Shown: positions 45,720-61,513, numbered from the stretch's first letter. The stretch is DNA of 64,000 nt from a virus (IMGVR_UViG_3300031251_000003:64001-128000), one strand, 5' to 3'. The notes: generated by a model from the sequence alone, not told the origin. Program-made: numbers and translations.

Positions 45720-45726
45720 TCTAAGC

Positions 45727-46792: not shown

Positions 46793-46842
46793 AGAATCGT
46801 CTGTCACGCCGGATCCTGACGTAAAACTTAGTCCGGCCACAT

Positions 46843-46915: not shown

Positions 46916-46919
46916 CTAT

Positions 46920-47230: not shown

Positions 47231-47301
47231 TGGCGTATCGTTCAACGGCAGGACGGGTGGCTGTTAACCATCTAATTCAGGTTCGAATCCTGGTATGCCA
47301 G
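47231..47301 (+). tRNA. tRNA-Asn(GUU)
   Basis: Cloverleaf. Confidence 0.9.
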
Positions 47302-47372
47302 CTTTAAATTCGTAGGGCACTACTCGCTGGTCGGACTAGTTTGCTGGCGAGCAACCCTACGGCGCGTTTCAT

Positions 47373-47443
47373 TCCCCGGTCGTCTAACGGTAGGGCAGAT
47401 GGCTGTTAACCATCGTATGAGGGTTCGATTCCTTCCTGGGGAG
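47373..47443 (+). tRNA. tRNA-Asn(GUU)
   Basis: Cloverleaf. Confidence 0.9.
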
Positions 47444-47607
47444 CTTCGCAGTACATTGTTCGTCGTCCGGGAGCATCGCGAGGCATAACGGGTAGCTCAG
47501 GGTTAAATTCCCTGATAGGGCGGCTAGCCCTAGACTGAACGTATTGATCCTTACTTGTTAAAGCGGGTTTGGGGAATGTGGCAATGTATTGCGCCGGTTT
47601 TAATCGT

Positions 47608-47648
47608 CGCGGATTAGAGAAAAGGTCATCTCGTGAGTCTCATAAACT
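47608..47648 (+). pseudogene. orphan 5' half of tRNA-Met(CAU)
   Basis: Acceptor 5' strand, D arm and anticodon loop, then HNH gene. Confidence 0.7.
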
Positions 47649-47652
47649 TTTC

Positions 47653-48048
47653 ATGAGTTTACGAACACTAATAGTAGAGATGCCATACAAAGATCCCGAA
47701 AAACAGAAAGAAGCACAGGCTAGATTAAGTGCTGCTTATTATCAAAAGAATAAGAAAAAGATGAAAGTTCGTGCAAAGCAGTATACATACGAACATCGAG
47801 AACGTCTTAAGCAGTTTTTGATAGAGATAAAGTCTGCTCCATGTATGGACTGTGGAAATTCGTTTCCATCATGTGTAATGGACTTTGATCACCGTGAGGG
47901 TGAAGAGAAAAACGGTTGTGTGTCTGTAATGGTGAACCGCGCACTAAGCTTAGATAGAATTAAACAAGAAGTATCTAAGTGCGACCTAGTATGTGCGAAC
48001 TGTCATCGGATTCGAACCTCCACGCGGAAACAAGCCCTGGTGGGCTAG
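47653..48048 (+). CDS. HNH homing endonuclease (start at 47653 or 47680)
   Basis: CMDC..MDFDH..KCDLVCANCHRIR. Confidence 0.88.
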   Translation: MSLRTLIVEMPYKDPEKQKEAQARLSAAYYQKNKKKMKVRAKQYTYEHRERLKQFLIEIKSAPCMDCGNSFPSCVMDFDHREGEEKNGCVSVMVNRALSLDRIKQEVSKCDLVCANCHRIRTSTRKQALVG

Positions 48049-48096
48049 GGAGTCTCATAAACTCTCTCATGGTCAGTTCGATTCTGACTTCCGCTA
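48023..48096 (+). tRNA. tRNA-Met(CAU), overlapping HNH 3' end
   Basis: CGCGGAA/TTCCGCT acceptor with 1:72 mismatch; GGAGT-CTCATAA-ACTCT. Confidence 0.7.
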
Positions 48097-48250
48097 TTTC
48101 AAAATGCAACTAGGCCGACATAGTTGCGCCATATGGTGAAATGATCGGCATACAATTCTGTCTAACCTAGATAGGAGCGCAAATAATCATGAAGTAAGTT
48201 ATAACCTTTGCTCGTATTTGAAGGTTAAATGATTATTCCGCATATACGTG

Positions 48251-48357
48251 AGACGAATGCCGCAGAAGCCGGAAACGTCTAGCAGGGTCAAGTCCGCGAT
48301 AATCAGCTTGATGCATTCCCTGTGAATACAGCGAAAGCCGCCGCCGAGGTTGAGTCT
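48251..48357 (+). ncRNA. orphan RNA motif copy 3
   Basis: GAAACGTCT 48272, AGCGAAAGC 48330. Confidence 0.55.
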
Positions 48358-48494
48358 GGATTACAGTGTATGTGATTATATGATATGATTTTAAGTTTGA
48401 TTCATCTTGACTGTGGAGCCGAAAGCTGAGAAGCAGATCAAGAAACTAATGTAGATACATCGAGGGGTCGCGCATCTCTAACACGCGAATATTT

Positions 48495-48584
48495 GGATAG
48501 GTACTCAAGAGGCTTAAGAGGATGGTTTGCTAAACCATTAGAGGATGTCAAAGTCCTGCCAGAGTTCGAATCTCTGTCTATCCG
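48495..48584 (+). tRNA. tRNA-Ser(GCU)
   Basis: Cloverleaf, long variable arm. Confidence 0.9.
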
Positions 48585-48655
48585 TGTAAGACGATCCGAA
48601 GACGATGGGAACGTACGCGCATATCATGCGTGGTGACAGTCTATTCGAGGATCAG

Positions 48656-48728
48656 TGAATTGTAGCTCAACGGTTAGAGCGTTCCCTTCATATGGGAAAG
48701 GTAGTCGGTTCGACTCCGATCAATTCCA
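48656..48728 (+). tRNA. tRNA with CAU anticodon (Met or Ile2)
   Basis: TTCCC-TTCATAT-GGGAA. Confidence 0.8.
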
Positions 48729-48816
48729 TTAAAGAGGATGGTAGCCGATAGGTTGGCGTGGGTGTGCTGATTCGGTGAGATGGTTCGTCCTGCCTCATAA
48801 GACCACGCGAGAATTT

Positions 48817-48903
48817 GGATATATGGCTGAGTGGATTAAAGCGCTAGTCTTGAAAACTAGTATGTGTGAAAGCGCATCCGGGGTTCGAATCCCTGTGTAT
48901 CCG
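48817..48903 (+). tRNA. tRNA-Ser(UGA)
   Basis: Cloverleaf, long variable arm. Confidence 0.9.
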
Positions 48904-49083
48904 TAGGATGGTTTACGACGTGGTAGTGTACGTTTGGCGCTTAAGTGCGTTCTGGCCGAGAATCAAAGGCATCCATCCTTGGGGTTAGAGACTTAGGATT
49001 CTGAGGCGAGCAACCTGAAATGGTAAGGAACGAATAACCGTTGCTGCGGCCTGTCGTTCAAACTGGATCAAGTCTCTTCTTTT

Positions 49084-49170
49084 GGAAACGTGGCCGAGAG
49101 GATTAAGGCGCAGACCTGGAAAGTCTGTTGGTATTTACGTGCTACGCAGGTTCGAATCCTGTCGTTTCCG
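49084..49170 (+). tRNA. tRNA-Ser(GGA)
   Basis: Cloverleaf, long variable arm. Confidence 0.9.
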
Positions 49171-49175
49171 CTCAT

Positions 49176-49310
49176 GGGGTGAAAATGGAGAGTCGTCTAG
49201 TTCGATTCTAGACTTGTGGATGGTTCCACGGCGGTTCAATTCCGCGTTATAAACTTGTGGCAGCAAATAGGGTAGCCCCCGCTCAGAGGGTTCAATTCCC
49301 TTACACTCCA
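49176..49310 (+). ncRNA. tRNA-like RNA with three T-arms and G3:U70 acceptor
   Basis: Three TTCRATT hairpins; GGGGTG/CACTCC-A. Confidence 0.6.
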
Positions 49311-49356
49311 TTTATTTACAATTAGGATTACTAATTACTCTTGTATAATAGATAGA

Positions 49357-49785
49357 ATGATTAATTCTAGAGTTTTAAATGAGAAAATAAAGGCCCAAAA
49401 GGAGATTACGAATCAACGATTCGCTGATTCAGAAAAAGCTGTTGCAGCAGCTTTAGCTGCTCAAGAAAAGGCAACAGCGGCAGCATTTGCGGCTGCAAAG
49501 GAAGCTGTCATCAAGGCAGAAATTTCCCAACAGCGTGTCAATGAAAGTCAGAATGAATTCCGTGGCCAGCTTAAAGATCAAAATGCCGCTACGGAACGTA
49601 ATATGATGCCTCGTGCTGAAACAGAGTTATTGGTTAGAGAAATTCGAAGTAGTATTCAGGATCTTCAGAAGAGCCGAGATACCATCACAGGCAAGTCAAT
49701 GGGGATAGCTAACTTGACTAGCTCTGTCTATGCGTTTATCTTTGCTATTGCAGCTATTGCAGCTATCGCAGGCCACTTTCTCTAA
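49357..49785 (+). CDS. coiled-coil protein with C-terminal TM anchor
   Basis: EKAVAAALAAQEKA..NEFRGQL. Confidence 0.75.
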   Translation: MINSRVLNEKIKAQKEITNQRFADSEKAVAAALAAQEKATAAAFAAAKEAVIKAEISQQRVNESQNEFRGQLKDQNAATERNMMPRAETELLVREIRSSIQDLQKSRDTITGKSMGIANLTSSVYAFIFAIAAIAAIAGHFL

Positions 49786-49804
49786 TATGCTATAATGTGA
49801 TCCC

Positions 49805-49957
49805 ATGAGGATCATTGGTGAACATTTCACTAGGCAGGGTAAGCCTAAGGTTACTTATGCGACCTTCCAGGGCGCTCAGAAGAAAGCACTGAAGCTTCAT
49901 ATGCGGGCTTATCAGTGTGGGTTTTGTGGCAAGTATTATCTAACGCATAAAGTTTAG
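49805..49957 (+). CDS. small basic Zn-ribbon protein
   Basis: RAYQCGFCGKYYLTH. Confidence 0.6.
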   Translation: MRIIGEHFTRQGKPKVTYATFQGAQKKALKLHMRAYQCGFCGKYYLTHKV

Positions 49958-50039
49958 GAAGATATCCGAACGGTTAGGAAGCGCCCTCGAAAAGCGCCGG
50001 TGTTCATAGCACTTGGGAGTTCGAATCTCCTGTCTTCCG
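49957..50039 (+). tRNA. tRNA-Ser(CGA)
   Basis: Cloverleaf with variable arm. Confidence 0.8.
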
Positions 50040-50255
50040 CTTATCGATAATCCGGGGATAGACCTAGGATTGTGACTGGATTAGGATCGCAACCTGATTA
50101 CGGCAATCTCATGATGGTCAGCTAGGGCCAGCACCTAGAATCGATTTCTAAAAGAACGACTCACGAAAGACTAGTGTAGGAAGGTAAGGGACGCAGGGTT
50201 GGGATGACGATCTCGACGCGCCTATTTCTGTATCTTTCGTGGGAAGGTTTAACAC

Positions 50256-50327
50256 ACGCCTTAGCCAATGGATAGGCAGATCGGCTCCAACCCGATCCAA
50301 AGGTGGGTTCGATTCCTACAAGGCGTG
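50256..50327 (+). tRNA. tRNA-Trp(CCA)
   Basis: ATCGG-CTCCAAC-CCGAT. Confidence 0.82.
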
Positions 50328-50349
50328 CTCAGTCTTATAAGGAGGATGT

Positions 50350-50682
50350 ATGCGAGTTCTATTACTGGTCTTGGTATTCTTGGTAATGGCAACGTCCGCG
50401 TTAGCATCTCCACCCCGCCCTGCGAGGGCTTTCGATACCTTATGGTGTTGGCAATTGAAAGTTCAGTACACGCTCAAGCTGGGATGGCAAGCTAAGCATT
50501 GGAAATGCAACCTAGGTAGTTGGGATCCGTATGCTAAAGAATGGACATATCGGGTCTGGGTTGATGAAGTAAAAGGTAGTCGTGTTTATCATGACTATGT
50601 GATCCTCTTTACAGACTTTGCTACTAAGAATTGGACACGAGTTCCCCATGGATATCCTGAAACAGGTGGTCTAAAGGGTTAA
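50350..50682 (+). CDS. secreted hypothetical protein
   Basis: RBS AAGGAGG; signal peptide ending ALA. Confidence 0.7.
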   Translation: MRVLLLVLVFLVMATSALASPPRPARAFDTLWCWQLKVQYTLKLGWQAKHWKCNLGSWDPYAKEWTYRVWVDEVKGSRVYHDYVILFTDFATKNWTRVPHGYPETGGLKG

Positions 50683-51022
50683 AGTGTGTACATCTCTTTC
50701 ACTGGATTCCAATGGTGTTCATGATTACAGTGACTGTGGAGCGAGAGCTTAGCACCAAGCGCACTCCTATTACTTGCACGGTTGGCTGATCGGTGTAAGC
50801 GCCACTCTTATAAGGTGGTTTAAGCTAGGTTCGACTGATATCCTGAAACAGGTGGTCTAAAGGGTTAAAGTGTGTACATCTCTTTCACTGGATTCCAATG
50901 GTGTTCATGATTACAGTGACTGTGGAGCGAGAGCTTAGCACCAAGCGCACTCCTATTACTTGCACGGTTGGCTGATCGGTGTAAGCGCCACTCTTATAAG
51001 GTGGTTTAAGCTAGGTTCGACT
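50651..51022 (+). repeat. perfect 186-bp tandem duplication
   Basis: 50651-50836 = 50837-51022; first copy holds a truncated tRNA-Ile. Confidence 0.92.
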
Positions 51023-51035
51023 CCTAGACCGTGTA
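50962..51035 (+). tRNA. tRNA-Ile(UAU)
   Basis: CCACT-CTTATAA-GGTGG. Confidence 0.85.
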
Positions 51036-51054
51036 CTTGTGCTATAATGTAGTC

Positions 51055-51549
51055 GTGAACGAAGAACGACAACAAGCTTGGAACCATTACTTCCAGACCG
51101 GCGATAGAGAACCAATCATCAAAGCCTACTGGAAGTCGATCAGTTACATTGCTCATGCTCGTTATCCGGCCTACGAAGAAGATATGTTCCAGGTCGGGCT
51201 AATGGGTTTGCTCAAGGCTATCAGTCGTATCGATGTCAATCGAGTCAAGTCTATTGATGCTTGGGTATGGTTGAATGTTCGTGGAGAAATGTTTAACGTA
51301 AAGCTTGCTAAGCCAACTCTTCCGATTGTTATCGAGTCAGAGAGGTTTGCTATCGAGGAAGACAAAGATCCAAAGATCTACATGCAACAGGCATTCGAGG
51401 TTCTAAACGAGCGCGATAGGTATATTCTTGATAGTATTTACTATAAGAATAAGACACGTCAGGCTCTAGGCAAGGAGTTGGGCATTACCGGCATGAGAGT
51501 CGGCCAACTAGAACAAAGAGCATTAAAGCAGTTGAGAGAAGTATTGTAA
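51055..51549 (+). CDS. sigma70-family RNA polymerase sigma factor
   Basis: EDMFQVGLMGLLKAI (region 2); LGKELGITGMRVGQLEQRALKQLR (region 4). Confidence 0.88.
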   Translation: MNEERQQAWNHYFQTGDREPIIKAYWKSISYIAHARYPAYEEDMFQVGLMGLLKAISRIDVNRVKSIDAWVWLNVRGEMFNVKLAKPTLPIVIESERFAIEEDKDPKIYMQQAFEVLNERDRYILDSIYYKNKTRQALGKELGITGMRVGQLEQRALKQLREVL

Positions 51550-51622
51550 GCACAGGTACTCAAGCGGTTAAGAGGCCACTCTGATAAGGTGGTATGCGAA
51601 AGTTCGAATCTTTCTCTGTGCA
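51550..51622 (+). tRNA. tRNA-Ile(GAU)
   Basis: Cloverleaf. Confidence 0.88.
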
Positions 51623-51697
51623 TAGGATCGGATTATTGATCCAAAGTAAGGCGACCAATATCGTGGCGCTAGCGAAAATCACAAAAACGACTTTACA

Positions 51698-51797
51698 GAT
51701 ATTTTCATTTGTAGGTTCGAATCCTACTCCCCGCTCTTCACGCGGGGATGGCGAAATTGGCAAACGCGCTGGGCGATCAGCCCGGTTGTGAAATATC
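51698..51797 (+). ncRNA. circularly permuted tRNA-like RNA (YrlA-like topology)
   Basis: Order T arm, loop-closed acceptor, D arm, hairpin; ends pair. Confidence 0.75.
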
Positions 51798-51875
51798 AAT
51801 CAAGCGAAAGTTGTGTTAGCTAGAATAAGGCGCGTGATGCTAGCCTTTTATTTAAGGTTATATGCCTCTTATAGT

Positions 51876-52020
51876 CTAGTGAGGATCAAAGAAACGTCTC
51901 ATGGTATGGGCTTCCAAACCTATACTACGTGTAGCTCAAATGGGAGAGCCGCCGCCTGAAAAGCGGTGGGTTGGGGGTTCGAGTCCCTCCACGAAAGTAG
52001 CGAAAGCTTTGGGAGTTAGT
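51876..52020 (+). ncRNA. orphan RNA motif copy 4 containing a tRNA-Phe(GAA)-like domain
   Basis: TCAAA-GAAACGTCT...[tRNA-like 51925-52000]AGCGAAAGC-TTTGG. Confidence 0.65.
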
Positions 52021-52051
52021 CGAGTGAAAAGTGGTTAATTAGCCTTATTCC

Positions 52052-52374
52052 GGGAGCGTCCCGGTTTCGATGTGGAATTACGGTTCTGACTTCAATCCGT
52101 GGAAACATGATGGCCACGTAAAAAACATGTAACGTACTAAATGCAAACGCTAATATGAGCGTCCCGGACTTCATCCCTGATTGGGTAATGGATGAGTCCT
52201 TAGTTGCTGCTTAACTAGGAAACCTAATAAGCAGAGACTCTCAGGAAAGACTGAGTGGCGGAGGGGCGACTGCCCTCCATGCTTGACAAGTACGACCGTG
52301 ATGGGTATAATCTATGATTGTAAGCGTTAGTTCAACGATTACCGCAGACGCGAGTTCGACTCTCGCCGCTTCCA
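52052..52374 (+). ncRNA. ssrA: tmRNA
   Basis: G3:U acceptor, CGGTTTCGA, T arm; tag ANANMSVPDFIPDWVMDESLVAA at 52143-52214. Confidence 0.92.
52283..52311 (+). promoter_or_regulatory. consensus promoter inside tmRNA
   Basis: TTGACA-17-TATAAT. Confidence 0.65.
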
Positions 52375-52409
52375 TATGTACTATATTTCACTCCCTCCAA
52401 AGGAAGTTA

Positions 52410-52604
52410 ATGCACGATAGATCAGACTACCATATCCACAAGGATGAGCAAGGGAAACTACACAGGTGTTACCACAACTGCCGAAATATCTTACCCAACT
52501 GGCAGTTCTGGGTTGGTATGACGATGGGATTCCCTCTCGAACATCTGATTTGGCAACATCTTTGGCCCTTCTATTTAGTTAGTAATCTTTTGGGCCTTTC
52601 GTGA
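52410..52604 (+). CDS. hypothetical protein
   Basis: MHDRSDYHIH..; RBS AAGGA. Confidence 0.6.
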   Translation: MHDRSDYHIHKDEQGKLHRCYHNCRNILPNWQFWVGMTMGFPLEHLIWQHLWPFYLVSNLLGLS

Positions 52605-52672
52605 CCTTGGCCGAGTGGTTTAGGTATGGCTCTGCAAAAGCTATTACATCAGTTCGAATCTGATAGGTCACT
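52601..52672 (+). tRNA. tRNA-Cys(GCA)
   Basis: Cloverleaf, U73. Confidence 0.9.
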
Positions 52673-52784
52673 TGAAGTACAATGTTTCATACAGGATCTA
52701 CCTCTGGCTCATAGCTAGGCGGTTTAGATTTGAATGGTTGGAAAGGCTGGTTCGTAAACCTATAAACCAGAGATGGAGAAGGTA

Positions 52785-52985
52785 ATGGCACAGTTGCAGA
52801 AGACATTCATTGCACGATTCTACGATAGCTCACGACATCAATTTGCTACCAACAAGGTAGTCGCGGCAAACTTCGTGATGGCAGGAGAAGTTGCCCATGA
52901 GTGGGCAGAAGATCACTACCATGGACGTGCAACGAAGATCAAACTAGAATCCTCCAAAGGTGGAGAAGTTGTGTGTTCCGACTAA
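52785..52985 (+). CDS. hypothetical protein upstream of rpsL
   Basis: RBS GGAGAAGG. Confidence 0.6.
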   Translation: MAQLQKTFIARFYDSSRHQFATNKVVAANFVMAGEVAHEWAEDHYHGRATKIKLESSKGGEVVCSD

Positions 52986-52997
52986 AAGGAAGGGTGT

Positions 52998-53399
52998 ATG
53001 GCGACAATTAATCAGCTTGTAAGAAAGGGCCGAACGGCCAAGAGGAAGAAGGATAAGTCCCGTCATTTAAAGGGTAACCCTCAGGTTGCCGGTACTGTCT
53101 TGCGCGTCATGGTTCTCAACCCTTGTAAGCCGAATTCTGCCGAACGTCATTCGTGCAGGGTTAGACTCTCCAATGGCGGTGAGGTAACCTGTTACGTCCC
53201 TGGTCGTGGTATGAATATCCAGGAGCACAGCAGAGTCCTTGTTCGCGGCGGAATTGCTCCTGATCTCCGTGGAGTCAAGTACAAGGTTGTCCGTGGTAAT
53301 CGTGACTGTGCCGGGGTCAGTGATGAGATGGGTGGAAAGAAGAATTCCACACCAGTTCCTCGTAAGAATTCTCGTTCACTCTACGGAGTGAAGAAGTAG
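52998..53399 (+). CDS. rpsL: ribosomal protein uS12, divergent, phage-encoded
   Basis: [29 protein letters not shown]...DL.GV, RSLYGVK. Confidence 0.95.
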
Positions 53400-53511
53400 T
53401 GTTACATCACCTTATCGCTCGTTCCGATGCCTGTTGACGCAGGCTTAGGGAGCAAAACTGAAGCGTCAACTTCGTCTCAATATCGGCACAAGCCGAAGCG
53501 ATAAGGATCTT

Positions 53512-53595
53512 GCCCGCCTGGTGGAATGGTATACACGGTTGGCTTAAACCCAACTGCCTATAACGGGCTTGCGAGTTCGAATCTCGCGGTGGGTA
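53512..53595 (+). tRNA. tRNA-Leu(UAA)
   Basis: Cloverleaf with variable arm. Confidence 0.9.
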
Positions 53596-53617
53596 CTTGG
53601 TAAGGATGGTAGTTCAT

Positions 53618-53701
53618 ACCGGTGTGCTGGAATTAGGTATACAGGGGCGTCTCAAAAACGTCTGCTCAAAAGGCATGAGAGTTCGATTCTCTCCATCGGT
53701 A
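53618..53701 (+). tRNA. tRNA-Leu(CAA)
   Basis: Cloverleaf with variable arm. Confidence 0.88.
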
Positions 53702-54000
53702 CTGTCGGTATCACGCTGGCGCTCTAAGGAGTCGAGGCCGAATATCGGGATGCATCTCGTGAGAGAAGGGGATCTTGACGCCCGGAGTTTTGTCTTTATG
53801 TCTGAAACTCCTTTATGTTCAATAAACTAACTCATAACGGTACAGCACCTGAGTCAGTGGATGGAGTCGTCTAGTTCTCTAACAGTCAAATTGGCGTCCT
53901 TTCTAGATAAGGTAATCCTCTAAGATTGAGATTGACTAGCGGCGAACTTGAGGTACGGAAGTACCTTAGCCGACGACATTTATGATAAACTGTAGTATTA

Positions 54001-54073
54001 CCCTCCATAGCTTCAACGGTAAAGCACGGGCCTTTTAAGCCATGAGTTCTGGGTTCGAATCCTAGTGGGGGGA
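54001..54073 (+). tRNA. tRNA-Lys(UUU)
   Basis: Cloverleaf; imperfect anticodon stem. Confidence 0.78.
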
Positions 54074-54150
54074 CTTGAGATCTAGGGTGTGGGTTATACG
54101 TCCACGTTTCCTTATAGGCGATGCGCTCGGTAGTGTCGTGATCTCTATTA

Positions 54151-54223
54151 GCCCTCTTAATTCAGTGGACAGAATGTTAGCCTTCGAAGCTAAACGTCGG
54201 GAGTTCGAATCTCTCAGAGGGTA
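54151..54223 (+). tRNA. tRNA-Arg(UCG)
   Basis: TTAGC-CTTCGAA-GCTAA. Confidence 0.88.
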
Positions 54224-54237
54224 TCTAGAAAGAAGAC

Positions 54238-54266
54238 TTGACAACCAGACAACAATGAGGTATACT
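54238..54266 (+). promoter_or_regulatory. sigma70-type promoter
   Basis: TTGACA-17-TATACT. Confidence 0.8.
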
Positions 54267-54272
54267 TAAGCC

Positions 54273-54491
54273 GTGGCTAAGAAACACAAGCCGAAGGAAA
54301 AGACTGAAACGAAGTTTTCGAAGTATCTTCCCGGCGAGAGTACATGGACGGGACGACGCAATAAGACGAGGCAGGATCTAATCCCAATGGGTCAACGTGA
54401 TCGCGTTGAAACAGCACAGAAGATCAGATCCTTCTCGATGCAGCATAAGCCATCTTGCACTAAAGATTGGCTGAAGTTGCGAGTACATTGA
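54273..54491 (+). CDS. small basic protein (leaderless)
   Basis: GTG 6 nt after -10. Confidence 0.55.
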   Translation: MAKKHKPKEKTETKFSKYLPGESTWTGRRNKTRQDLIPMGQRDRVETAQKIRSFSMQHKPSCTKDWLKLRVH

Positions 54492-54653
54492 TAACTTAGG
54501 TGGTGGTACCGGGAACCCCGATCCGGTGACGCGGAAGCGTATGGTGTAAGGGTTATGCACGCCACATGTACTAAGCCTTGGGATGCGATTCTCAAGGTAC
54601 CCTTTCTAGCAGGGGATGTGCCTGGGCACCGCTCCAGAGCCAGCTAGATGTAA

Positions 54654-54727
54654 CTGGATGTAGGAAAGCTTGGTAATCCGTCTGCTTTGGGAGCAGAAGA
54701 GCGTGAGTTCGAATCTCACCGTCCAGA
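54654..54727 (+). tRNA. tRNA-Pro(UGG)
   Basis: Cloverleaf. Confidence 0.9.
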
Positions 54728-54730
54728 CTG

Positions 54731-54939
54731 AAGAGTTAGGAGGTTGGCCTAAAGGCAGCCACCCTTTAAAGAGTAGACTTACGTGAGCCGACCACGCTGA
54801 GCGAAAGCCTATTTGAGAGTCATGATCGCGCAAAGGTGACAATGATCCCGCGCCCGGAATGGCAACATGACGAAGACCAAGGAAACGACTTGGAAGAATA
54901 AACGGGTTAGTCTTTTGGCGTAACAGCACACTATCTCTT
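54731..54939 (+). ncRNA. 23S rRNA GTPase-associated-centre (H43-H44) mimic with 143-nt insert
   Basis: TAGGAGGTTGGCCTAAAGGCAGCCACCCTTTAAAGAGT...GCGTAACAGCACACTA closed by AAGAG/CTCTT. Confidence 0.85.
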
Positions 54940-54949
54940 TTAGAATTGA

Positions 54950-55024
54950 CTGGATATAGCTCAGCCTGGTTAGAGTACGCCCTTGGGGAGGGTGAGGCCG
55001 CAAGTTCGAATCTTGCTATCCAGA
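54950..55024 (+). tRNA. tRNA-Pro(GGG)
   Basis: Cloverleaf. Confidence 0.88.
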
Positions 55025-55027
55025 TAA

Positions 55028-55098
55028 CAGGATGTTGTATAGTGGTAATATACTTGCTTCGGGAGCATGAGTCAGAGGTTCGAGTCCTCTCATCCTGA
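55028..55098 (+). tRNA. tRNA-Pro(CGG)
   Basis: Cloverleaf. Confidence 0.85.
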
Positions 55099-55154
55099 TA
55101 TGTACTAGCTTTCTTATGGTGATCTCGCCCTACTAATGGGTAGGTGATAAATAA

Positions 55155-55322
55155 ATGAGACAACATATAGAAGGTGGATTACTTTCATTCTTAGGATTAT
55201 GTGCTGCTGCTCTCTTCTTTGGTCTTCTCGTATTTGGAGGATCCATTAGCGATTGGCCATTAGAGGTAGCAGGCTTCTTTGCTCTAGCTATTGCGTTCGT
55301 TCTGGAACGCTTAGGGTTGTAA
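55155..55322 (+). CDS. 55-aa membrane peptide
   Basis: MRQHIEGGLLSFLGLCAAALFF... Confidence 0.6.
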   Translation: MRQHIEGGLLSFLGLCAAALFFGLLVFGGSISDWPLEVAGFFALAIAFVLERLGL

Positions 55323-55557
55323 GACTCCGCTGGAATGCGGCGCATAGGGAGGTTCTTCGAGCCGTTGATCTATGTGATGGTGGAAACCGTGCCCGTTGAG
55401 CCGGGTAAAGGTACGACTAGCCATCGTATCGAAAGCGTAGGGCAGCGCGGTTGTAGCTGGTGGTGAGGGCGCAGCTATGGTATGGCTAAACGCCGAATCG
55501 TTCGAAGCGACAAGGCTTACGGGGTTGGTAATTCTCACGACTTGCCGATCCCGCCAA

Positions 55558-55629
55558 TGCGGTGTAGTCTAATGGTAGTGACTTCCGGCTCTGAACCGGA
55601 CAGTGTTGGTTCGAATCCAGCCTCCGCAG
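55558..55629 (+). tRNA. tRNA-Gln(CUG)
   Basis: Cloverleaf. Confidence 0.88.
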
Positions 55630-55919
55630 CTAACTCTAACGAGTAACAAGTGATTACAGCCGCTGATTGCCACGAGCGGTAAAGGATGGTCTTTTATGCC
55701 GGACGCTAGAATATGGCAGGTATAAAACTAAGTGTGTGGGTACCCGTAGCAATCACAGCCGCCGTTTTGTAATCCAGGATGTGGATTGTCGAGGTATGGT
55801 ATAGACACCACTTCTAGAAATCCACCATACATGCGCTACCTTGGAAAGGTGTAACGGTTCATAACCTGCCTTTCCTCCAATCCCCACTTAGGCTGAAATA
55901 TACCTAGGTGGGGAACCAA

Positions 55920-56000
55920 GCATATGTTGAGCAAAGGCTAGCTCCGCTGTCTGTAAAACAGCCGTCTCCGACTATGTAGGTTCGAATCCTACCATATGCA
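55920..56000 (+). tRNA. tRNA-Tyr(GUA)
   Basis: Cloverleaf with variable arm. Confidence 0.85.
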
Positions 56001-56004
56001 CTGA

Positions 56005-56076
56005 TGGGAAATCGGTTAATGGTTAAACCAAGAGCCTTTGAAGCTCTGACTTTGGGTTCGAGTCCCAATTTCCCTA
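56005..56076 (+). tRNA. tRNA-Gln(UUG)
   Basis: Cloverleaf. Confidence 0.85.
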
Positions 56077-56113
56077 TAGGTCAAGCTGGTGGGCCTGAAG
56101 CACTAGCATTTAC

Positions 56114-56187
56114 GGAAGCGTAGCTCAGTTGGTTAGAGCACCGGCCTGTCACGTCGGTAGTCGCGGGTTCGAGTCCCGTCGTTTCCG
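56114..56187 (+). tRNA. tRNA-Asp(GUC)
   Basis: Cloverleaf. Confidence 0.93.
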
Positions 56188-56418
56188 CTCTTTGGACGAT
56201 GACCTGTGGAAGGATTTATGCCAAACTTCCTAAAGGGTAAAAAGCTAGCGAGTAAGGCGAAGCTGGGGCACCACAAAATGCGTCAGTGGATGAAAGCTAG
56301 CGAATCAAGCTGCTGTAGGCATAACGGTAGTGTAATGAGCGAGTCTAACTCAAGTATTTTCGCTCCACCGTCCAAGGTTTTAAGTTGACCAATCATAATT
56401 TGTATGATATACTAAGTC

Positions 56419-56592
56419 ATGGTTACTAAAACGGACATAAAAACTCTTGAATTCGATGTAGATGGGAAGACAATCGAGCTTCAAGTTAAATGTGAGTTGG
56501 TTAGTAAAACTTGGAAACTTACGATTAATTGTAAGGATCCCGGTCGTGTTGAGTTTGAAACCATCATGAGTAAGATGGGTGTTATAAGATAA
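56419..56592 (+). CDS. hypothetical protein (leaderless)
   Basis: TTGACC-17-TATACT then ATG 5 nt later. Confidence 0.6.
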   Translation: MVTKTDIKTLEFDVDGKTIELQVKCELVSKTWKLTINCKDPGRVEFETIMSKMGVIR

Positions 56593-56596
56593 ATAA

Positions 56597-56672
56597 CGGG
56601 GTGTGGTGTAGTCCGGTCTAACACGCTTGCCTGTCACGCAAGAGAACGAGGGTTCAAATCCCTTCATCCTGA
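56597..56672 (+). tRNA. tRNA-Asp(GUC)
   Basis: Cloverleaf. Confidence 0.85.
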
Positions 56673-56742
56673 TTGAAGATCGTCTAAAGTAGGACGCCTG
56701 GTTTAACGGGAGATTCTAGAGGTTAACGTCTCTGGCTTCAAA
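56673..56742 (+). pseudogene. degenerate tRNA-like element
   Basis: Acceptor and D arm; non-consensus T loop. Confidence 0.4.
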
Positions 56743-56748
56743 ATACTT

Positions 56749-56823
56749 GCCTCGTTGGTCTAGCGGTCTAGGATACCGGGTTTTCACCCCGCGTGAACAA
56801 GGGTTCGAATCCCTTACGAGGTA
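56749..56823 (+). tRNA. tRNA-Glu(UUC)
   Basis: Cloverleaf. Confidence 0.85.
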
Positions 56824-56835
56824 CCTTAATAAAAA

Positions 56836-57167
56836 TTAGACACCAGGGTTTCAGAGCAAAGCGGTAGCTCCGAGCGCTCTTATGAGATCTTGGGTGTTGT
56901 GACGGAAAAGTGCCTATCTTGCTTCCGCAAAGCGGTGAGCTAGGTATTGAACGTATAAGCGGCGAAAGCTCTGGGCAACCGGAGCCGGTAGCAGCCGAAG
57001 TAAAGGAATCGAAACCAGCGGCTTAGCGGCTGAGGGACTAGGTTCTGGGCGGGGGTTGTACCTCGTACAGTGGTGGCTCGACAGGGCAGCGGAAGTAGAA
57101 GAGAAACCATATGACAAGGTAGCTTGCCTCTTCTTGCGGGATACCAAGACCCGCCAACACAGTCTAA
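56836..57167 (+). ncRNA. large orphan structured RNA
   Basis: Ends pair; long-range complements; GNRA hairpins. Confidence 0.55.
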
Positions 57168-57207
57168 ATCTTGGGGATGTTTGGGTAAAACTGAGCATCC
57201 CCACCAA

Positions 57208-57283
57208 CCTTCAGTAGCTCAACGGTAGAGCGGTACGCTGTATGGAAGCGTTCGGGTTGCGAGTTCAATTCTCGTCTGAGGGT
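57208..57283 (+). ncRNA. tRNA-like RNA with enlarged anticodon arm
   Basis: Canonical D, T and acceptor; 4 extra nt in anticodon arm. Confidence 0.65.
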
Positions 57284-57348
57284 CTTCTCGCTCGACACTC
57301 CCCTCCTAGGCCAATGATCTAGCCCGTGGGAAAGTGCGGCGAGTTCTA

Positions 57349-57421
57349 GCCAGCCTCGTATAACGGCATATTACACCGCACTTGTAATGCGGGTATTTCG
57401 GTTCAATTCCGAAGGTTGGCT
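57349..57421 (+). tRNA. tRNA-Thr(UGU)
   Basis: Cloverleaf. Confidence 0.88.
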
Positions 57422-57526
57422 CTCGTGTGTGGAAATGAAACTATGTGACGAGCGCGTTCCGGCATAGAAGTAGTGGCCTTTCTGGGTTCGAGTCCCAGCA
57501 CCGATTTATCAAAACAAGGAGGCACT

Positions 57527-57880
57527 TTGCTGAAATGGCTAAAGTTGCCGATACTAACTGTACTAATCCTAAGTAGTTTGGGAAATCTCAGGACAAACGG
57601 CGCTAAAGCTGTCTCAGTTCGTAGTCTCACTGTTTTAGAGACTGCCTATTGTCTTAGGGGAACTATGGCCAACGGCCACTATGTTCACCCTGGGGCAATA
57701 GCGGTTGATCCAAGAGTTATTCCTATGGGATCTCGTATCTTTGTCCCCGGCTATGGTTGGGGAACAGCAGAGGATACGGGTGGTGCAATTATCGGCTATC
57801 ATATCGATGTATGGATGAGCGATTGCTCACAAGCTATGAGATCTACCCGATGGAATGTACGGATCAAAATTTCACGTTGA
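57527..57880 (+). CDS. secreted 3D-domain (MltA-like) cell-wall protein
   Basis: TAY..AVDPRVIPMGS..AEDTGGAI..IDVW; RBS AAGGAGG. Confidence 0.88.
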   Translation: MLKWLKLPILTVLILSSLGNLRTNGAKAVSVRSLTVLETAYCLRGTMANGHYVHPGAIAVDPRVIPMGSRIFVPGYGWGTAEDTGGAIIGYHIDVWMSDCSQAMRSTRWNVRIKISR

Positions 57881-58017
57881 GTGGGAAGGTAACAAATATA
57901 GGTGGCATTTGGGGCCAAATGGCTATGCCGAAATTACTAGAAGAGTTAGCTAAATGTGATGTTGTTTGTGCTAACTGCCATCTTCGTAGACATCATTCCG
58001 CGTTGTTCGTAGACTAA
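57880..58017 (+). pseudogene. HNH endonuclease C-terminal remnant
   Basis: EELAKCDVVCANCHLRRH, no N-terminal half. Confidence 0.75.
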
Positions 58018-58076
58018 TTGGTTAAGTCCCTACCCTGTGAAGGTAGCCTATACGGGTTCGAATCCCGCCGAACAAC
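58002..58076 (+). tRNA. tRNA-His(GUG)
   Basis: G-1:C73; CTACC-CTGTGAA-GGTAG. Confidence 0.85.
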
Positions 58077-58143
58077 TCAAGGGGATCTCCTTGATATGCC
58101 GTGGTTCGTCGGTTACGAATTCTTGGAGCAAGATCCCCTCCAT

Positions 58144-58257
58144 GCAGCAGTCGCTTAAGTGGGAAAGCACCTACTGATAAAGAAGTCTCCATGGTTATAG
58201 ACCGGTCAAACGGTGGAGATTTGTAGGAGATCATTGGTTCGAATCCAGTCTGTTGTT
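58144..58257 (+). ncRNA. tRNA-like RNA with large insertion in anticodon arm
   Basis: Acceptor, D and T arms canonical; CCTAC/GTAGG enclose ~48 nt. Confidence 0.7.
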
Positions 58258-58261
58258 CTTT

Positions 58262-58336
58262 GAGAGATTAGCATAATTGGACTAATGTTCCAGGTTGTGA
58301 TCCTGGCTAATTTCGGTTCGAATCCGAAATCTCTCT
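58262..58336 (+). tRNA. tRNA-His(GUG)
   Basis: CCAGG-TTGTGAT-CCTGG. Confidence 0.78.
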
Positions 58337-58429
58337 TGCCTTGATAACCCCAGTCGCTTCGGCGGCTCCGAGATAGGCACGGAATGAAACAGACCATTGG
58401 GAGCAGATGGCTTTAGCCGATCTGTTTTC

Positions 58430-58502
58430 GCCTGAGTAGTGATAACGGTCAGCACACATCCTTGGTAAGGATGGAGTTTGGGTTCGATTCCCAGCTTGGG
58501 CT
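58430..58502 (+). tRNA. tRNA-Thr(GGU)
   Basis: Cloverleaf. Confidence 0.9.
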
Positions 58503-58503
58503 T

Positions 58504-58635
58504 ATGAGTAACTTCAAACGCAAGAAATCAAGACGTTCGGTAAAGTGTACCATGTGTACACCATTTAGATGGTTAGGAAATACCAAAGAACGGCGACCCT
58601 TTAAAGACCGTCGCCAACTTCAGAAGGAGGAATAG
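58504..58635 (+). CDS. 43-aa basic CxxC peptide
   Basis: MSNFKRKKSRRSVKCTMCTPFRWLGN... Confidence 0.55.
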   Translation: MSNFKRKKSRRSVKCTMCTPFRWLGNTKERRPFKDRRQLQKEE

Positions 58636-58637
58636 CA

Positions 58638-59366
58638 TTGGCAGCAGTTGATCAGGCAATCTATGTTATCATCGATGGCAGTGGCTCGATGAGTAGCGTG
58701 AAGCATGATGTAGTCAAGGGCATTAACGATTTCATTACGGAACAGCAGGACGACATCAAGGGCACACAGGATGTTGTGTTGTTTTCTCTGACATCCTTTG
58801 ACACGAATGTCCAGGAAATCTACGTGAGAGAGAATCTAGAGCTAGTCAATCCTGTCTCTTTGAAGGATACTTACTTGGGCGGTGGTACATCTCTTCTAGA
58901 TGCTATTGGCCGTACACTGACTAAGGCTGAGGATGAACAGGCTGATCGTAACATCGTCGTGATCTATACCGATGGTGGCGAGAATTCAAGTCATGAGTTC
59001 ACTAAGACTCAGGTTGGTGATTTGATCGACAAGCTGACTGGTACAGGAGATTGGCAGATCATCTATCTCGGTGCTGAGTTTGCCGACTTCGCAGAAGATC
59101 GTCAGGGCTTTGGTGCTATTGCTGGTGCCGCAGCGGGTGGTACCTTTACTGGTATGAACACGTCGAAGAATGATGTTGGTGCCACGTTCTCTAACCTGTC
59201 CCAGACATCCATCTATTACAGAGGGATGCACACCAATTCTGCTAAGAATCTTGTTGCTCGCGGTGGAGTCGTGGCCGCAGCAGCGGAGGATATTGGCCTT
59301 ACCTGGAACGAGGATGACACAACGGTTATTCCGGCCGATGTAGTGGAACCTAAGAAGAAAGCCTAG
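58638..59366 (+). CDS. von Willebrand factor A domain protein
   Basis: MIDAS DGSGSM, GGTSLLDAIG, YTDGGENSS, YLGA. Confidence 0.9.
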   Translation: MAAVDQAIYVIIDGSGSMSSVKHDVVKGINDFITEQQDDIKGTQDVVLFSLTSFDTNVQEIYVRENLELVNPVSLKDTYLGGGTSLLDAIGRTLTKAEDEQADRNIVVIYTDGGENSSHEFTKTQVGDLIDKLTGTGDWQIIYLGAEFADFAEDRQGFGAIAGAAAGGTFTGMNTSKNDVGATFSNLSQTSIYYRGMHTNSAKNLVARGGVVAAAAEDIGLTWNEDDTTVIPADVVEPKKKA

Positions 59367-59407
59367 GGGAGAGGACGCCATCTGCTCTCTAAAAAATGAT
59401 GGCACTA

Positions 59408-59478
59408 GCCAGTTTAGTATAGTGGGAATACTCGCCTTTCGTAAGGGCGAAACTAGGGTTCGATTCCCTAATCTGGCT
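59408..59478 (+). tRNA. tRNA-Thr(CGU)
   Basis: Cloverleaf. Confidence 0.85.
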
Positions 59479-59514
59479 CTGCTTATCAGGCGCGTCCCGG
59501 TAGCTCCGGGTTAA

Positions 59515-59586
59515 GAGCGTGTAGTTCAGCGGGAGAACGTCTGGGTGACAACCAGAAGATCGTAGGTTCGATTCCTACCATGCTCA
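59515..59586 (+). tRNA. tRNA-Val(GAC)
   Basis: Cloverleaf. Confidence 0.88.
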
Positions 59587-59654
59587 TACGGCCCTTGTGG
59601 GGTCCAAAACAATACAAATTCTATTTAGATCTGAAAGGGATAAGGTGAATAGAT

Positions 59655-59843
59655 ATGAAGACTCGTTGGATGATTATTCCGACCGTGGTGGCCCTTTTAG
59701 GTATGATTGTTGTGTTCGTAGTCGGGTATCTTACTTACGGTATTTGGGCCGGTTTCTTTGTTTCTATTCTTTTCGGAGTTATTAGCTTGATTCTTCTCAT
59801 CTGGGCTGCTATAATGGATGGAGAAGATAATACGCATGTATAG
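59655..59843 (+). CDS. small membrane protein
   Basis: Two TM segments. Confidence 0.6.
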   Translation: MKTRWMIIPTVVALLGMIVVFVVGYLTYGIWAGFFVSILFGVISLILLIWAAIMDGEDNTHV

Positions 59844-59906
59844 CAAAGTTGGTATTGCGCTTCCTTGCCATGGAAGAGGCCACGAGTTCGAGTCTCGTTA
59901 CATGCT
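59834..59906 (+). tRNA. tRNA-Gly(GCC)
   Basis: Cloverleaf. Confidence 0.88.
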
Positions 59907-59910
59907 TTAC

Positions 59911-59982
59911 GCACCAGTAATGTAGTGGTTAACATGACAGTCTTCCAAACTGTATACCAGAGTTCGAATCTCTGTTGGTGCA
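59911..59982 (+). tRNA. tRNA-Gly(UCC)
   Basis: Cloverleaf. Confidence 0.88.
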
Positions 59983-59986
59983 TCGT

Positions 59987-60059
59987 TGCTCCGTAGATTA
60001 GAGGACAAATCACTTCCCTGCGAAGGAAGAAATCACGAGTTCGAATCTCGTCGGGGCTA
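59987..60059 (+). tRNA. tRNA-Arg(GCG)
   Basis: CTTCC-CTGCGAA-GGAAG. Confidence 0.85.
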
Positions 60060-60097
60060 TAGTTCAGCTAACACCGATTTATGATATAATAGGTATC

Positions 60098-60422
60098 TCA
60101 GTAGATGGACATACGCTGCATCGTGTATCTATCGGTGTAGAGGAAGTTCGGGACATCCTTCTAGGGGAGCCAAGGAACCTAGAGAAAAACGTGCGGCAGT
60201 AGTGGGAGTCAGGTGCATTGGGTAAACCTTCGGGCATAATGCGGTGCTATCACCCTCCTGACGCCTTACCACGAGAATCGGCGGGATGCGATCACAAGCA
60301 GATACATCAGCTACGATGATATCGGGTAGTGAGCAGCCCTTCGGGGCCAGGGATTGAACAGACCCTGAGATAGATGTATGTCGCCCTTGACAGGGTACAA
60401 AATTCCGGCTATAATCTACTGA
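60098..60422 (+). ncRNA. rnpB: RNase P RNA
   Basis: P1 TCAGTAGAT/ATCTACTGA, P2 GACATAC/GTATGTC, P4 GAGGAAGTTCGGG and ACAAAATTCCGGCTAT; TATAAT just upstream. Confidence 0.85.
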
Positions 60423-60432
60423 AGCAATGTAC

Positions 60433-60504
60433 GGCGATAAGCCTGCGGTGGGCAACTTCTCTCATAAGGAAGTCTGAGGTAAGGTTCGATTCCTACTATC
60501 GCTA
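60433..60504 (+). tRNA. tRNA-Met(CAU)
   Basis: CTTCT-CTCATAA-GGAAG. Confidence 0.75.
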
Positions 60505-60506
60505 CT

Positions 60507-60767
60507 ATGAGCAAACACAACAAAACCAAGATCGAAAAGGTACTAAGGAACGAAGTCAACGTACTACGTTTCAAGCCGAAGACAGATCCTAAGGACTCTA
60601 AGCCAGAGAAGAAGATCGGCAAGTTCGCTAACTGGTGTCGTCTTCAGGGTCATCCTGCAACGTGCGGGTGTGCCTATAGCAAGATCGAAATCTCGGCTAA
60701 GAACCATCCAGTTAGTAATGGAGACTGTGTTAACGGCAGAGACTGCCCTAACCACCCGAGAAGGTAG
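60507..60767 (+). CDS. small basic Cys/His protein
   Basis: 86-aa ORF starting 2 nt after tRNA. Confidence 0.55.
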   Translation: MSKHNKTKIEKVLRNEVNVLRFKPKTDPKDSKPEKKIGKFANWCRLQGHPATCGCAYSKIEISAKNHPVSNGDCVNGRDCPNHPRR

Positions 60768-60781
60768 TGTACCCAATCTAA

Positions 60782-60853
60782 TCCCTTGTAGGTTAGAGGA
60801 TAAACCAGTGGTTTCCTAAACCACAATCCCGAGTTCGAGTCTCGGCAGGGGGA
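60782..60853 (+). tRNA. tRNA-Arg(CCU)
   Basis: Cloverleaf. Confidence 0.88.
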
Positions 60854-60855
60854 CT

Positions 60856-61056
60856 ATGAAAAGAAAACTAAAGTGCAGCACTTGTGGCACCACGACAAAT
60901 ACAGCTACAGGGAAGCCTTTGTATCTGTTAGGTTCCAGTGATGCGTCTCTAATGCTTCTTCCCGCTGAGATAGAATGTTGGGAATGTGGGGAGAAGAGAC
61001 GCGATGCCGATCAGAAGAGAAAGACCTTAGATCGGTACGCTAAGGCAAAATCTTAG
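60856..61056 (+). CDS. small Zn-ribbon protein
   Basis: CSTC..CWEC. Confidence 0.65.
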   Translation: MKRKLKCSTCGTTTNTATGKPLYLLGSSDASLMLLPAEIECWECGEKRRDADQKRKTLDRYAKAKS

Positions 61057-61070
61057 AATACGGTAAATCC

Positions 61071-61109
61071 AGCCCGGATGAGAGAAAATCTCATCCGGGC
61101 TTTCCTTTT
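61071..61109 (+). terminator. terminator closing the RNA array
   Basis: AGCCCGGATGAGA-GAAAA-TCTCATCCGGGCT-TTCCTTTT. Confidence 0.85.
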
Positions 61110-61315
61110 GTGGAAAATGGAAAATACGAGTGCGTAATTAAGGAGAGTACCTTTTGTTTAGTTAAAGTGAGGTCGGGATATGTTAGGTGTGTTAGCTTAT
61201 GATTGTGTACAGTGGGCTTGGGTACTGCTTCTTCCTTTCTGGTTAAGTGGGTATGGTGTGGGGTACTGGTTGGGTAGTAAAAAGCGCAAAGAGCGAAAGA
61301 GGACGAGAAACAATA

Positions 61316-61513
61316 ATGTCAAAGGCAGATAGATTTATTCGCAATTCGTTGTTAATTGTTATGCTCGTTCTATGGCTTGCTTCGGCGGTAGATGCTTTCC
61401 TAACCCAGAACTTTACAGGACTAGCATTAATAACGACAGCCGTAACAACCTTAGGAGGAATTTATCTAGGGTTCCAAGGCGGCAAGAAGGATGACAACAA
61501 AAATGACAAATAA
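61316..61513 (+). CDS. small membrane protein
   Basis: Two TM segments. Confidence 0.6.
   Translation: MSKADRFIRNSLLIVMLVLWLASAVDAFLTQNFTGLALITTAVTTLGGIYLGFQGGKKDDNKNDK

Follow-up and report, generated by a model that had tools for sequence, protein, structure and literature searches.

Can a bacteriophage carry a free-standing copy of a functional centre of the ribosome? This question is raised by a short locus in a viral DNA stretch of 64,000 nt (IMGVR_UViG_3300031251_000003:64001-128000, hereafter the window). Positions 54730-54940 on its + strand correspond to a self-closed RNA of ~211 nt between two proline tRNA genes, in which a preliminary description had recognised the two halves of helices H43 and H44 of bacterial 23S ribosomal RNA (rRNA), i.e., of the GTPase-associated centre (GAC). 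In E. coli, nucleotides 1051-1108 (the top of H42, H43 and H44) are the minimal fragment that binds uL11 and thiostrepton. We have found that the element belongs to a real, strongly conserved and apparently undescribed class of phage non-coding RNA, which mimics the uL11/GTPase-associated centre.

A split copy of the GTPase-associated centre

In E. coli numbering, which is used throughout, positions 54735-54774 correspond to 1051-1090 and positions 54918-54935 to 1091-1108 (Table 1). The 5' half (54737-54774), the 3' half (GCGTAACAGCACACTA, 54918-54933) and the flanking tRNA-Pro genes are all located where they had been reported. The break in the GAC copy falls between 1090 and 1091, within the 5' strand of H44, and this helix is thus interrupted on one strand. 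Two parts of the earlier picture have to be refined. The insert, given as 143 nt closed by AGACT/AGTCT, does span 143 nt (54775-54917), but it really consists of a lineage-specific domain of 139 nt followed by a UUUR linker conserved in the family. Likewise, the closing stem AAGAG (54731-54735)/CTCTT (54935-54939) is present, but the helix is actually ten pairs long (54730-54739 with 54931-54940), including one U.U mismatch. The equivalents of A1067 and A1095 had been said to be kept, and this holds (A54751 and A54922); those of U1060 and A1088 are U54744 and A54772. The window can form H43, H44, the three-way junction, the 1082-1086 pair, R1056.A1103 and G1093.A1098.

Table 1 Parts of the GAC-like element and its nearest neighbours in the window
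Feature	Position	Strand	Remarks
Nearest upstream sigma-70-type promoter-like site, TTGACA-17-TATACT	54238-54266	+	11/12, consensus match only
tRNA-Pro(UGG)	54654-54728	+	63.6 bits; 3' end 1 nt before closing stem
Closing helix P1, 5' strand	54730-54739	+	54735-54739 = 23S 1051-1055; 54730-54734 = extension without rRNA counterpart
G1056 equivalent (faces A at 54930) and H43 equivalent (1057-1081)	54740-54765	+	U1060 = 54744; A1067 = 54751
Equivalent of U1082-A1086 pair with 3-nt loop (UUAAA)	54766-54770	+	pair covaries in the family
H44 5' strand up to the break: G1087, A1088, G1089, U1090	54771-54774	+	
Lineage-specific insert, 139 nt, closed by AGACU (54775-54779)/AGUCU (54909-54913)	54775-54913	+	
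Family-conserved linker UUUG, from insert to G1091	54914-54917	+	
Rest of H44 (1091-1102) with 1093-1098 loop	54918-54929	+	A1095 = 54922; A1101 = 54928, a family-private change
A1103 equivalent and P1 3' strand	54930-54940	+	1104-1108 = 54931-54935, then 5-nt extension
tRNA-Pro(GGG)	54950-55024	+	61.8 bits; 5' end (RNase P site) 9 nt after closing stem

The resemblance of the element to rRNA is far beyond chance. When joined, the halves agree with the true E. coli sequence (L001:1810-1867) at 43 of 58 positions overall, and at 40 of 50 (80%) over 1055-1104. Aligned without gaps to both strands of the window, E. coli 1055-1090 matches best at 54739, with 28 of 36 positions identical, while the next best site has 22 and the background is 9.1 +/- 2.6. 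The Rfam model LSU_rRNA_bacteria aligns 54734-54791 to the GAC region (model positions 1091-1152) with 21.3 bits, which is below its gathering score of 50; the expect value (E) amounts to 1.2e-5 per genome, and to 0.006 when 20 kb are searched with all families of Rfam. The preliminary description had called the halves nearly identical to H43-H44 of large-subunit (LSU) rRNA, which is fair for the family consensus (median identity to rRNA over the 50 nt 43/50, up to 47/50) but too strong for the window member as compared with E. coli; its identity to Paenibacillus rRNA, aligned by eye, is 84%. Several of the differences from E. coli are compensated within base pairs, i.e., G1058-C1080 here versus U-A, and U1090-A1101 here versus A-U. 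No other rRNA match and no rrn operon exist in the window or in the 158-kb genome, and the earlier statement that the element has no flanking rRNA operon is thus borne out.

An RNA family of phages and its conserved fold

The family was seeded by a blastn search of a phage collection, which matched the 5' half in Pseudomonas phages Astolliot and Milchi. Their loci have the same architecture and linker as the window, while the closing helix (TTGATGG/CCATCAA) and the insert are different. We have then scanned a viral contig collection with two exact patterns, one anchored in the 5' half (47 contigs) and one in the 3' half (more than 119 contigs). Requiring both halves and a closing helix, 96 unique elements were assembled from viral contigs; to guard against circularity, each half was scored only on members found via the opposite half. 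A search for homologues in related phages had been proposed as a check of the locus, and the 96 elements come from many unrelated phages.

The 3'-half pattern has also been searched in 185,579 species genomes, where it occurs at 80 loci, 43 of them with the 5' half upstream. The other 37 were set aside, as they fit the ~140 chance matches expected in 596 Gb, and the family is therefore strongly enriched in phages. The matches in bacterial genomes belong to many phyla and are mostly on contigs of metagenome-assembled genomes.

The family is carried mainly by big, tRNA-rich phages, which span Pseudomonas, Enterobacterales, Xanthomonas, Aeromonas, Clostridia and others. Cultured carriers include, besides Astolliot and Milchi, the Pseudomonas phages pf16 and UNO-G1W1, Cronobacter GAP32, Pectobacterium CBB, Serratia BF, several Erwinia pEa_SNUABM phages, Kaldavass, Xanthomonas XacN1 and XbC2, and Aeromonas 4_4572. 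In the GenBank records of these cultured carriers no feature is annotated at the site of the element. Small 'phage' records were rejected as carriers since they hold genuine 23S rRNA, and so was Paenibacillus phage Pd_22F, which has a full genuine 23S gene. This gene (L246, MZ092003.1, ~82.5-85.1 kb) is an essentially full-length bacterial 23S (2618 bits), unannotated in a record labelled as a complete phage genome; its presence there reflects either host DNA or an error of assembly.

A covariance model built from 14 short-insert members, with the window left out, finds the window element end to end (54729-54941, model positions 1-152) with 79.1 bits and an E of 8e-23, and this is its only match in the 64 kb. 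In an E. coli rrn operon the same model picks the true GAC (23S 1045-1114, 55.7 bits).

Immediately 5' of the clear copy, Astolliot and Milchi each have another one that is far more divergent (L003:2663-2975 and L002:2663-2975). It consists of a GGGCUUAGAAGUAGCC tip and a UUUGGUGUCAUAACAC 3' half, ~270 nt apart, and scores weakly (14 and 10 bits with the covariance model; E 0.03-5 with a hidden Markov model). In this copy 1072 is U and 1092-1099 is U-A, which amounts to a joint change of the rRNA triple C1072.(C1092-G1099).

For the test of the fold, 47 members were aligned with MAFFT without structural information, and the structure tested on this alignment was taken from rRNA, not from the members. 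With this structure, 92.2% of the cells are paired, compared with 71.5% in shuffled alignments, and the covariation score is 0.543 versus 0.146; none of 500 shuffles scores as high, and slid registers give 0.09-0.19. Conserved H43/H44 pairing, on which the preliminary description had made its proposal depend, is thus found together with compensatory changes across the family. The closing helix has 6-15 bp in different members and shows 3-5 pair types per position, and six pair types occur at 1058-1080. The pair 1082-1086, which is specific to the GAC, covaries as well (UA in 62, CG in 19 and AU in 6 of the 96 members; 31, 9 and 5 of the 47), and so does the closing stem of the insert in the alignment of 47. 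As for the non-canonical contacts, 1056.1103 is G.A or A.A in 96/96 members and G1093.A1098 is present in 96/96, while U1060/A1088 are kept in all 47 aligned members. The exposed loop bases, although less important for the fold itself, are conserved nearly as well as in rRNA: U1066 in 79/79, A1067 in 71/79, A1069 in 78/79, U1094 in 37/37 and A1095 in 33/37.

Besides what it shares with rRNA, the family has private marks that distinguish it from true rRNA, i.e., A1101, the insert between 1090 and 1091, the UUUR linker, and a closing helix of free sequence that replaces H42. As this helix stands in for H42, there is no uL10 site. The linker is TTTG in 68 and TTTA in 14 of 86 members (UUUR in 82/86). 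The pair U1090-A1101 is kept in 85/96 members, including the window (U at 54774, A at 54928), while the true rRNAs of E. coli, Listeria and Paenibacillus have U1101; the private A1101 makes U1090.U1101 a Watson-Crick pair beside the break. On the other hand, real Gram-positive rRNAs read ...AAAGAGU|GCGUAAUAGCUCAC, and G1089 and U1090 of the mimic are therefore ordinary.

In genomes with both a mimic and a true 23S gene, the mimic keeps the family marks (A1101, canonical length) and ignores the peculiarities of the host rRNA. In Flintibacter muris and in strain D16-76, for example, the rRNA has an extra nucleotide and U1082...A1086, while the mimics of both are of canonical length and one has C1082-G1086. 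We have thus rejected the idea that the mimic copies the rRNA variant of its host. This retention of family marks beside the host 23S points to one family that has probably spread among phages, and not to repeated capture of host rDNA.

As for the neighbourhood, tRNA genes are the sole recurrent neighbours of the elements; no recurrent neighbouring protein was found, the largest cluster being present at 5 of the 96 loci. An element lies within 30 nt of a same-strand tRNA at 35 of the 96 loci, compared with 17.5% of random positions, and no element has tRNAs only on the opposite strand, while 32 loci have no tRNA in the stretch examined. The gaps are 0-10 nt on the upstream and 2-13 nt on the downstream side in the family, and 1 and 9 nt in the window. 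Gaps of this size would be required if RNase P and the tRNA 3'-end enzymes are to release the RNA, and the tight spacing fits the earlier suggestion that the element is set free by processing of the flanking tRNAs.

Possible functions of the RNA

What could such an RNA do? We propose, with about even confidence, that it is a non-coding copy of the GAC which is released by tRNA processing, binds host uL11 and works off the ribosome as a sponge or decoy. The RNA would be transcribed together with the flanking tRNAs from the sigma-70-type promoters of the array, would be cut free by the tRNA-trimming enzymes, and should be abundant and stable in the infected cell. Its most likely partner would be host uL11. 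The uL11-RNA surface would then be displayed off the ribosome, where it could be recognised by translational GTPases, RelA, thiopeptides and GAC-directed toxins, and the RNA, as a sponge or decoy, would draw off at least one of these ligands.

Of the possible consequences, we rank first the titration of free or exchangeable uL11, which would weaken the uL11-dependent activation of RelA; capture of a translational GTPase or of RelA would come second, and capture of an agent aimed at H43/H44 third. The wider proposal, that a trans-acting copy in large phages of many phyla captures uL11, RelA, a GTPase or a toxin and so rewires the control of host translation, e.g., by blunting RelA-dependent (p)ppGpp, is put forward tentatively and would have somewhat less than an even chance of being right.

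The conserved positions are those through which the rRNA meets its ligands. The U1060-A1088 pair hydrogen-bonds to the C-terminal domain of uL11 (PMC2175356), A1067 and A1095 are factor and thiostrepton bases (PMC2175356), and thiopeptides bind in the A1067/A1095 cleft of H43/H44 (PMC8661411; PMC2175356). In addition, Tre23 ADP-ribosylates 1095-1098 and cripples the GTPase of EF-G (PMC8661411). Since Tre23 and thiopeptides both act on H43/H44, this surface is a real target in nature.

Several observations weigh against the sponge or decoy that we propose. For the window RNA, the rRNA-like fold has a free energy of -41.6, which is 17 kcal/mol worse than the nearest-neighbour minimum free energy (MFE) of -58.8, and the RNA folds no better than its shuffles (z = -1.3). 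The alternative fold pairs the 5' strand of H43 with the linker and H44, and nine of these pairs are possible in 45-47 of the 47 aligned members. The upper H43 stem and H44 are invariant and show no covariation of their own; for these parts, support comes only from the homology to rRNA. About 10% of the members have G at 1067. In a few members an additional hairpin next to 1078, within the stem bound by uL11, might hinder uL11. Moreover, in binding uL11 a sponge would face competition from the ribosomes.

As the MFE structure is not the rRNA fold, the earlier idea of an independently folding rRNA-domain mimic draws on comparative evidence, i.e., the self-closed H43/H44 copy and the family comparison, and not on thermodynamic prediction. 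The alternative MFE fold itself was set aside, since the pairs of its conserved part are between invariant bases and could form in genuine E. coli rRNA as well; its pairs within the insert are not shared by other members, and there is no covariation of the linker with position 1065 (p = 0.69).

Two observations concern the linker and the hairpin mentioned above. By its complementarity, the conserved UUUG (54914-54917) could pair with the 5' side of the H43 loop (54749-54752; Y1065, A1067, R1068), and such a pairing may extend the alternative helix so that A1067 is masked, a possible switch. The hairpin follows directly after GCAGCCA in L059, L089 and L134 (alignment columns 35-58) and represents a second tolerated insertion site.

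An explanation that we regard as unlikely, though worth weighing, is that the GAC fold is a compact, nuclease-resistant and possibly uL11-capped handle, while the activity resides in the insert, which would be an aptamer, guide or ribozyme, depending on the lineage. Most members indeed have a sizeable structured insert (0-369 nt, median ~130 nt) at a fixed site with a conserved linker, and the closing stem of the insert covaries. One large class of inserts shares a 3' module, which consists of CACCCC, a 3-bp hairpin with a GNRA-like loop and then GGUAAGG; the closing pair of this small hairpin covaries (G-C, A-U, U-A, G.U), and an AGUR motif lies ~12 nt upstream of the module (e.g., L003:3105-3140, L007, L015, L025, L126, L130). 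However, the inserts fall into unrelated classes and are not homologous across the family, and some members have a hairpin of only 27-45 nt in their place.

One copy, on an 11-kb viral contig (L048:4337-4414), stands alone without any insert: it has the closing helix AGCCAG/CUGGCU and an rRNA-like U1101, scores 65.5 bits and passes the Rfam LSU gathering score, and lies ~65 nt upstream of an ATG, with no tRNA nearby and no other 23S sequence within the 11 kb. A scaffold, moreover, would not need the A1067/A1095 loop bases or the uL11-contact pair at the rRNA standard. As the inserts are unrelated, variable and sometimes absent, the constant, hence presumably functional, module should be the GAC copy, and the inserts would be dispensable.

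The insert of the window does not have the CACCCC...GGUAAGG module, has no relative among the 95 other inserts and has no Rfam match. A pattern for the H43 loop variant of the window gave 0 viral and 3 chance metagenome matches, and a tail-sheath search for a related viral contig found none. Since the insert has no relatives, its interior hairpins stay an unsupported prediction of low confidence. We have also considered the insert as a copy of the sarcin-ricin loop and rejected this, as none of the 96 inserts has such a motif at up to 2 substitutions; at up to 4 substitutions there is none in the insert of the window and none on the array strand.

That the RNA, with or without uL11, is a counter-weapon decoy seems improbable to us. 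In such a role it would soak up a Tre23-type ADP-ribosyltransferase, a GAC-modifying or -cleaving effector or a thiopeptide, and spare the ribosomes that the phage needs; the molecular picture is common to the uL11-binding sponge, while the ligand and the benefit differ. Tre23 and thiopeptides do target this surface (PMC8661411; PMC2175356), but Tre23 is an interbacterial effector of the type VI secretion system. The loop bases that these agents target are strongly conserved in the family, and the element sits in tRNA arrays. One proposed role of phage tRNA arrays is to make up for tRNAs that host defences deplete, and the nearest cultured relatives of the phage, which are tRNA-rich phages with just 37-39% identity in rIIA, infect Streptomyces, a genus that includes thiopeptide producers. 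However, we know of no anti-phage system with a GAC-targeting activity. The host spread of the family is broader than any single toxin or antibiotic niche, and a stoichiometric decoy would be weak against an enzyme.

A role in cis is very unlikely. The element would then be part of the tRNA operon, as an insulator for processing, spacing or folding, or it would be a leader regulating a downstream gene. The tight abutment to tRNAs at many loci would suit the former. For the latter, rRNA mimicry is a known mechanism of ribosomal-protein leaders (review cited in PMC10931766). However, a third of the 96 loci have no tRNA in the stretch examined, no downstream gene is conserved at the 96 loci, and the phage of the window has no uL11 gene. 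In addition, a spacer would not require 50 nt that stay 80-94% identical to rRNA in phages from different phyla.

Finally, a captured 23S gene fragment, a pseudogene or a chimeric assembly, which the sequence resemblance alone and the genuine 23S contamination of phage records (the small records and Pd_22F) might suggest and of which the preliminary description had kept the last in mind, can practically be dismissed, as just 58 nt are rRNA-like and are closed by their own covarying helix, at least 96 unique homologues share the split architecture, the private marks A1101 and UUUR are absent from true rRNAs, and the record is a complete phage genome.

The tRNA array and comparison with known RNAs

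The source record is a complete virus genome of 158,106 bp, and the phage is a myovirus, with genes for tail sheath, baseplate and rIIA. Its array (42.2-60.9 kb, + strand) comprises 46 tRNA genes and a transfer-messenger RNA (tmRNA). Six sigma-70-type sites with at least 11 of 12 matches were found, all on the + strand of the array, of which three are perfect TTGACA-17-TATAAT sites (45080, 52283 and 60387), and a strong terminator follows 3' of the array (61071-61101). The promoter at 54238-54266, one of the six sites and judged by its consensus match, would drive a unit with both tRNA-Pro genes and the GAC-mimic element.

The same unit has a spacer of 382 nt behind this promoter (54272-54653), which folds mildly better than its shuffles (z = -2.1) and has no Rfam match; a very basic open reading frame of 72 aa in it (54273-54491) has no Pfam or PHROG match. 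Some matches to the tRNA model are not called by ARAGORN, i.e., 58144-58257 (114 nt, 38.9 bits, possibly a tRNA with an insertion) and the weak ones at 42703-42771 and 42880-42950 (32.4 and 29.5 bits). RNase P RNA has no Rfam match in 41600-61500 at E up to 0.5.

The preliminary description knew of no phage RNA of this kind, and our searches agree: no published description of a GAC-mimic RNA was found in full-text literature searches with varied wording, and none of the families of Rfam 15 matches. A search of 54200-54960 that admitted E values up to 10 gave only a chance-level match to DUF805b (11 bits versus a cut-off of 35.6), and the region has no Rfam matches besides tRNA, tmRNA and the weak LSU match.

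With the bacterial 23S GAC itself the mimic shares the three-way junction, the helices, the 1082-1086 pair, R1056.A1103, G1093.A1098, U1060/A1088 and the loops including A1067 and A1095. In contrast, the rRNA domain continues into H42 and the uL10 site, is unsplit, has U1101 and belongs to an rrn operon, whereas the mimic is free-standing with its own non-conserved closing helix, split at 1090|1091, has A1101 and is encoded by phages next to tRNAs.

Ribosomal-protein leaders (those of uL1, uL10-bL12, uS15 and others) are similar in that an RNA off the ribosome imitates the rRNA site to which a ribosomal protein binds, a principle described in PMC10931766. They act in cis, in the mRNA of the bound protein, and are usually loose mimics. 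The phage-borne element, in contrast, is a close copy, is flanked by tRNAs instead of lying in a 5' untranslated region, and has no ribosomal-protein gene nearby. To our knowledge, no rRNA-mimic leader for uL11 has been described.

The T4 RNAs rnaC and rnaD (species 1 and 2) are likewise small, stable non-tRNA RNAs without assigned function in a phage tRNA cluster, and according to their annotation they are processed with the tRNAs. They are not the same RNA and are unrelated to it in sequence and structure: over the tRNA region of T4, the family covariance model reaches at best 7.2 bits (E 0.11, filters off), and this match does not lie at rnaC/rnaD. GOLLD and ROOL are large, ornate, structured phage-associated RNAs in Rfam, of unassigned function and often near phage tRNA genes. 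The mimic differs from them, as its region has no match to either in Rfam, and it is much smaller and has a recognisable rRNA model.

Analogous in principle are 6S RNA, which decoys RNA polymerase, and the phage RNA anti-CRISPRs, which imitate CRISPR repeats. They are free RNAs that imitate the nucleic-acid ligand of a host protein, as is proposed for the mimic, but here the imitated molecule is an rRNA domain, and the presumed target is uL11 or the ligands of the uL11-RNA surface.

We know of no virus that makes a free-standing imitation of the GAC. At the least, the family is a widespread and strongly conserved class of RNA which neither Rfam nor genome annotation includes, and it would provide a natural set of GAC variants for structural studies, with sites that tolerate insertions. 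As it is present, unannotated, in cultured and tractable phages, experiments are immediately possible. If the proposal is true, phages would supply, beyond tRNAs and tmRNA, a free-standing imitation of the GAC, which, as a viral RNA decoy directed at the factor-binding site of the ribosome, would represent a new class. It would give phages a route to control elongation-factor traffic, the stringent response, or resistance to agents directed at H43/H44.

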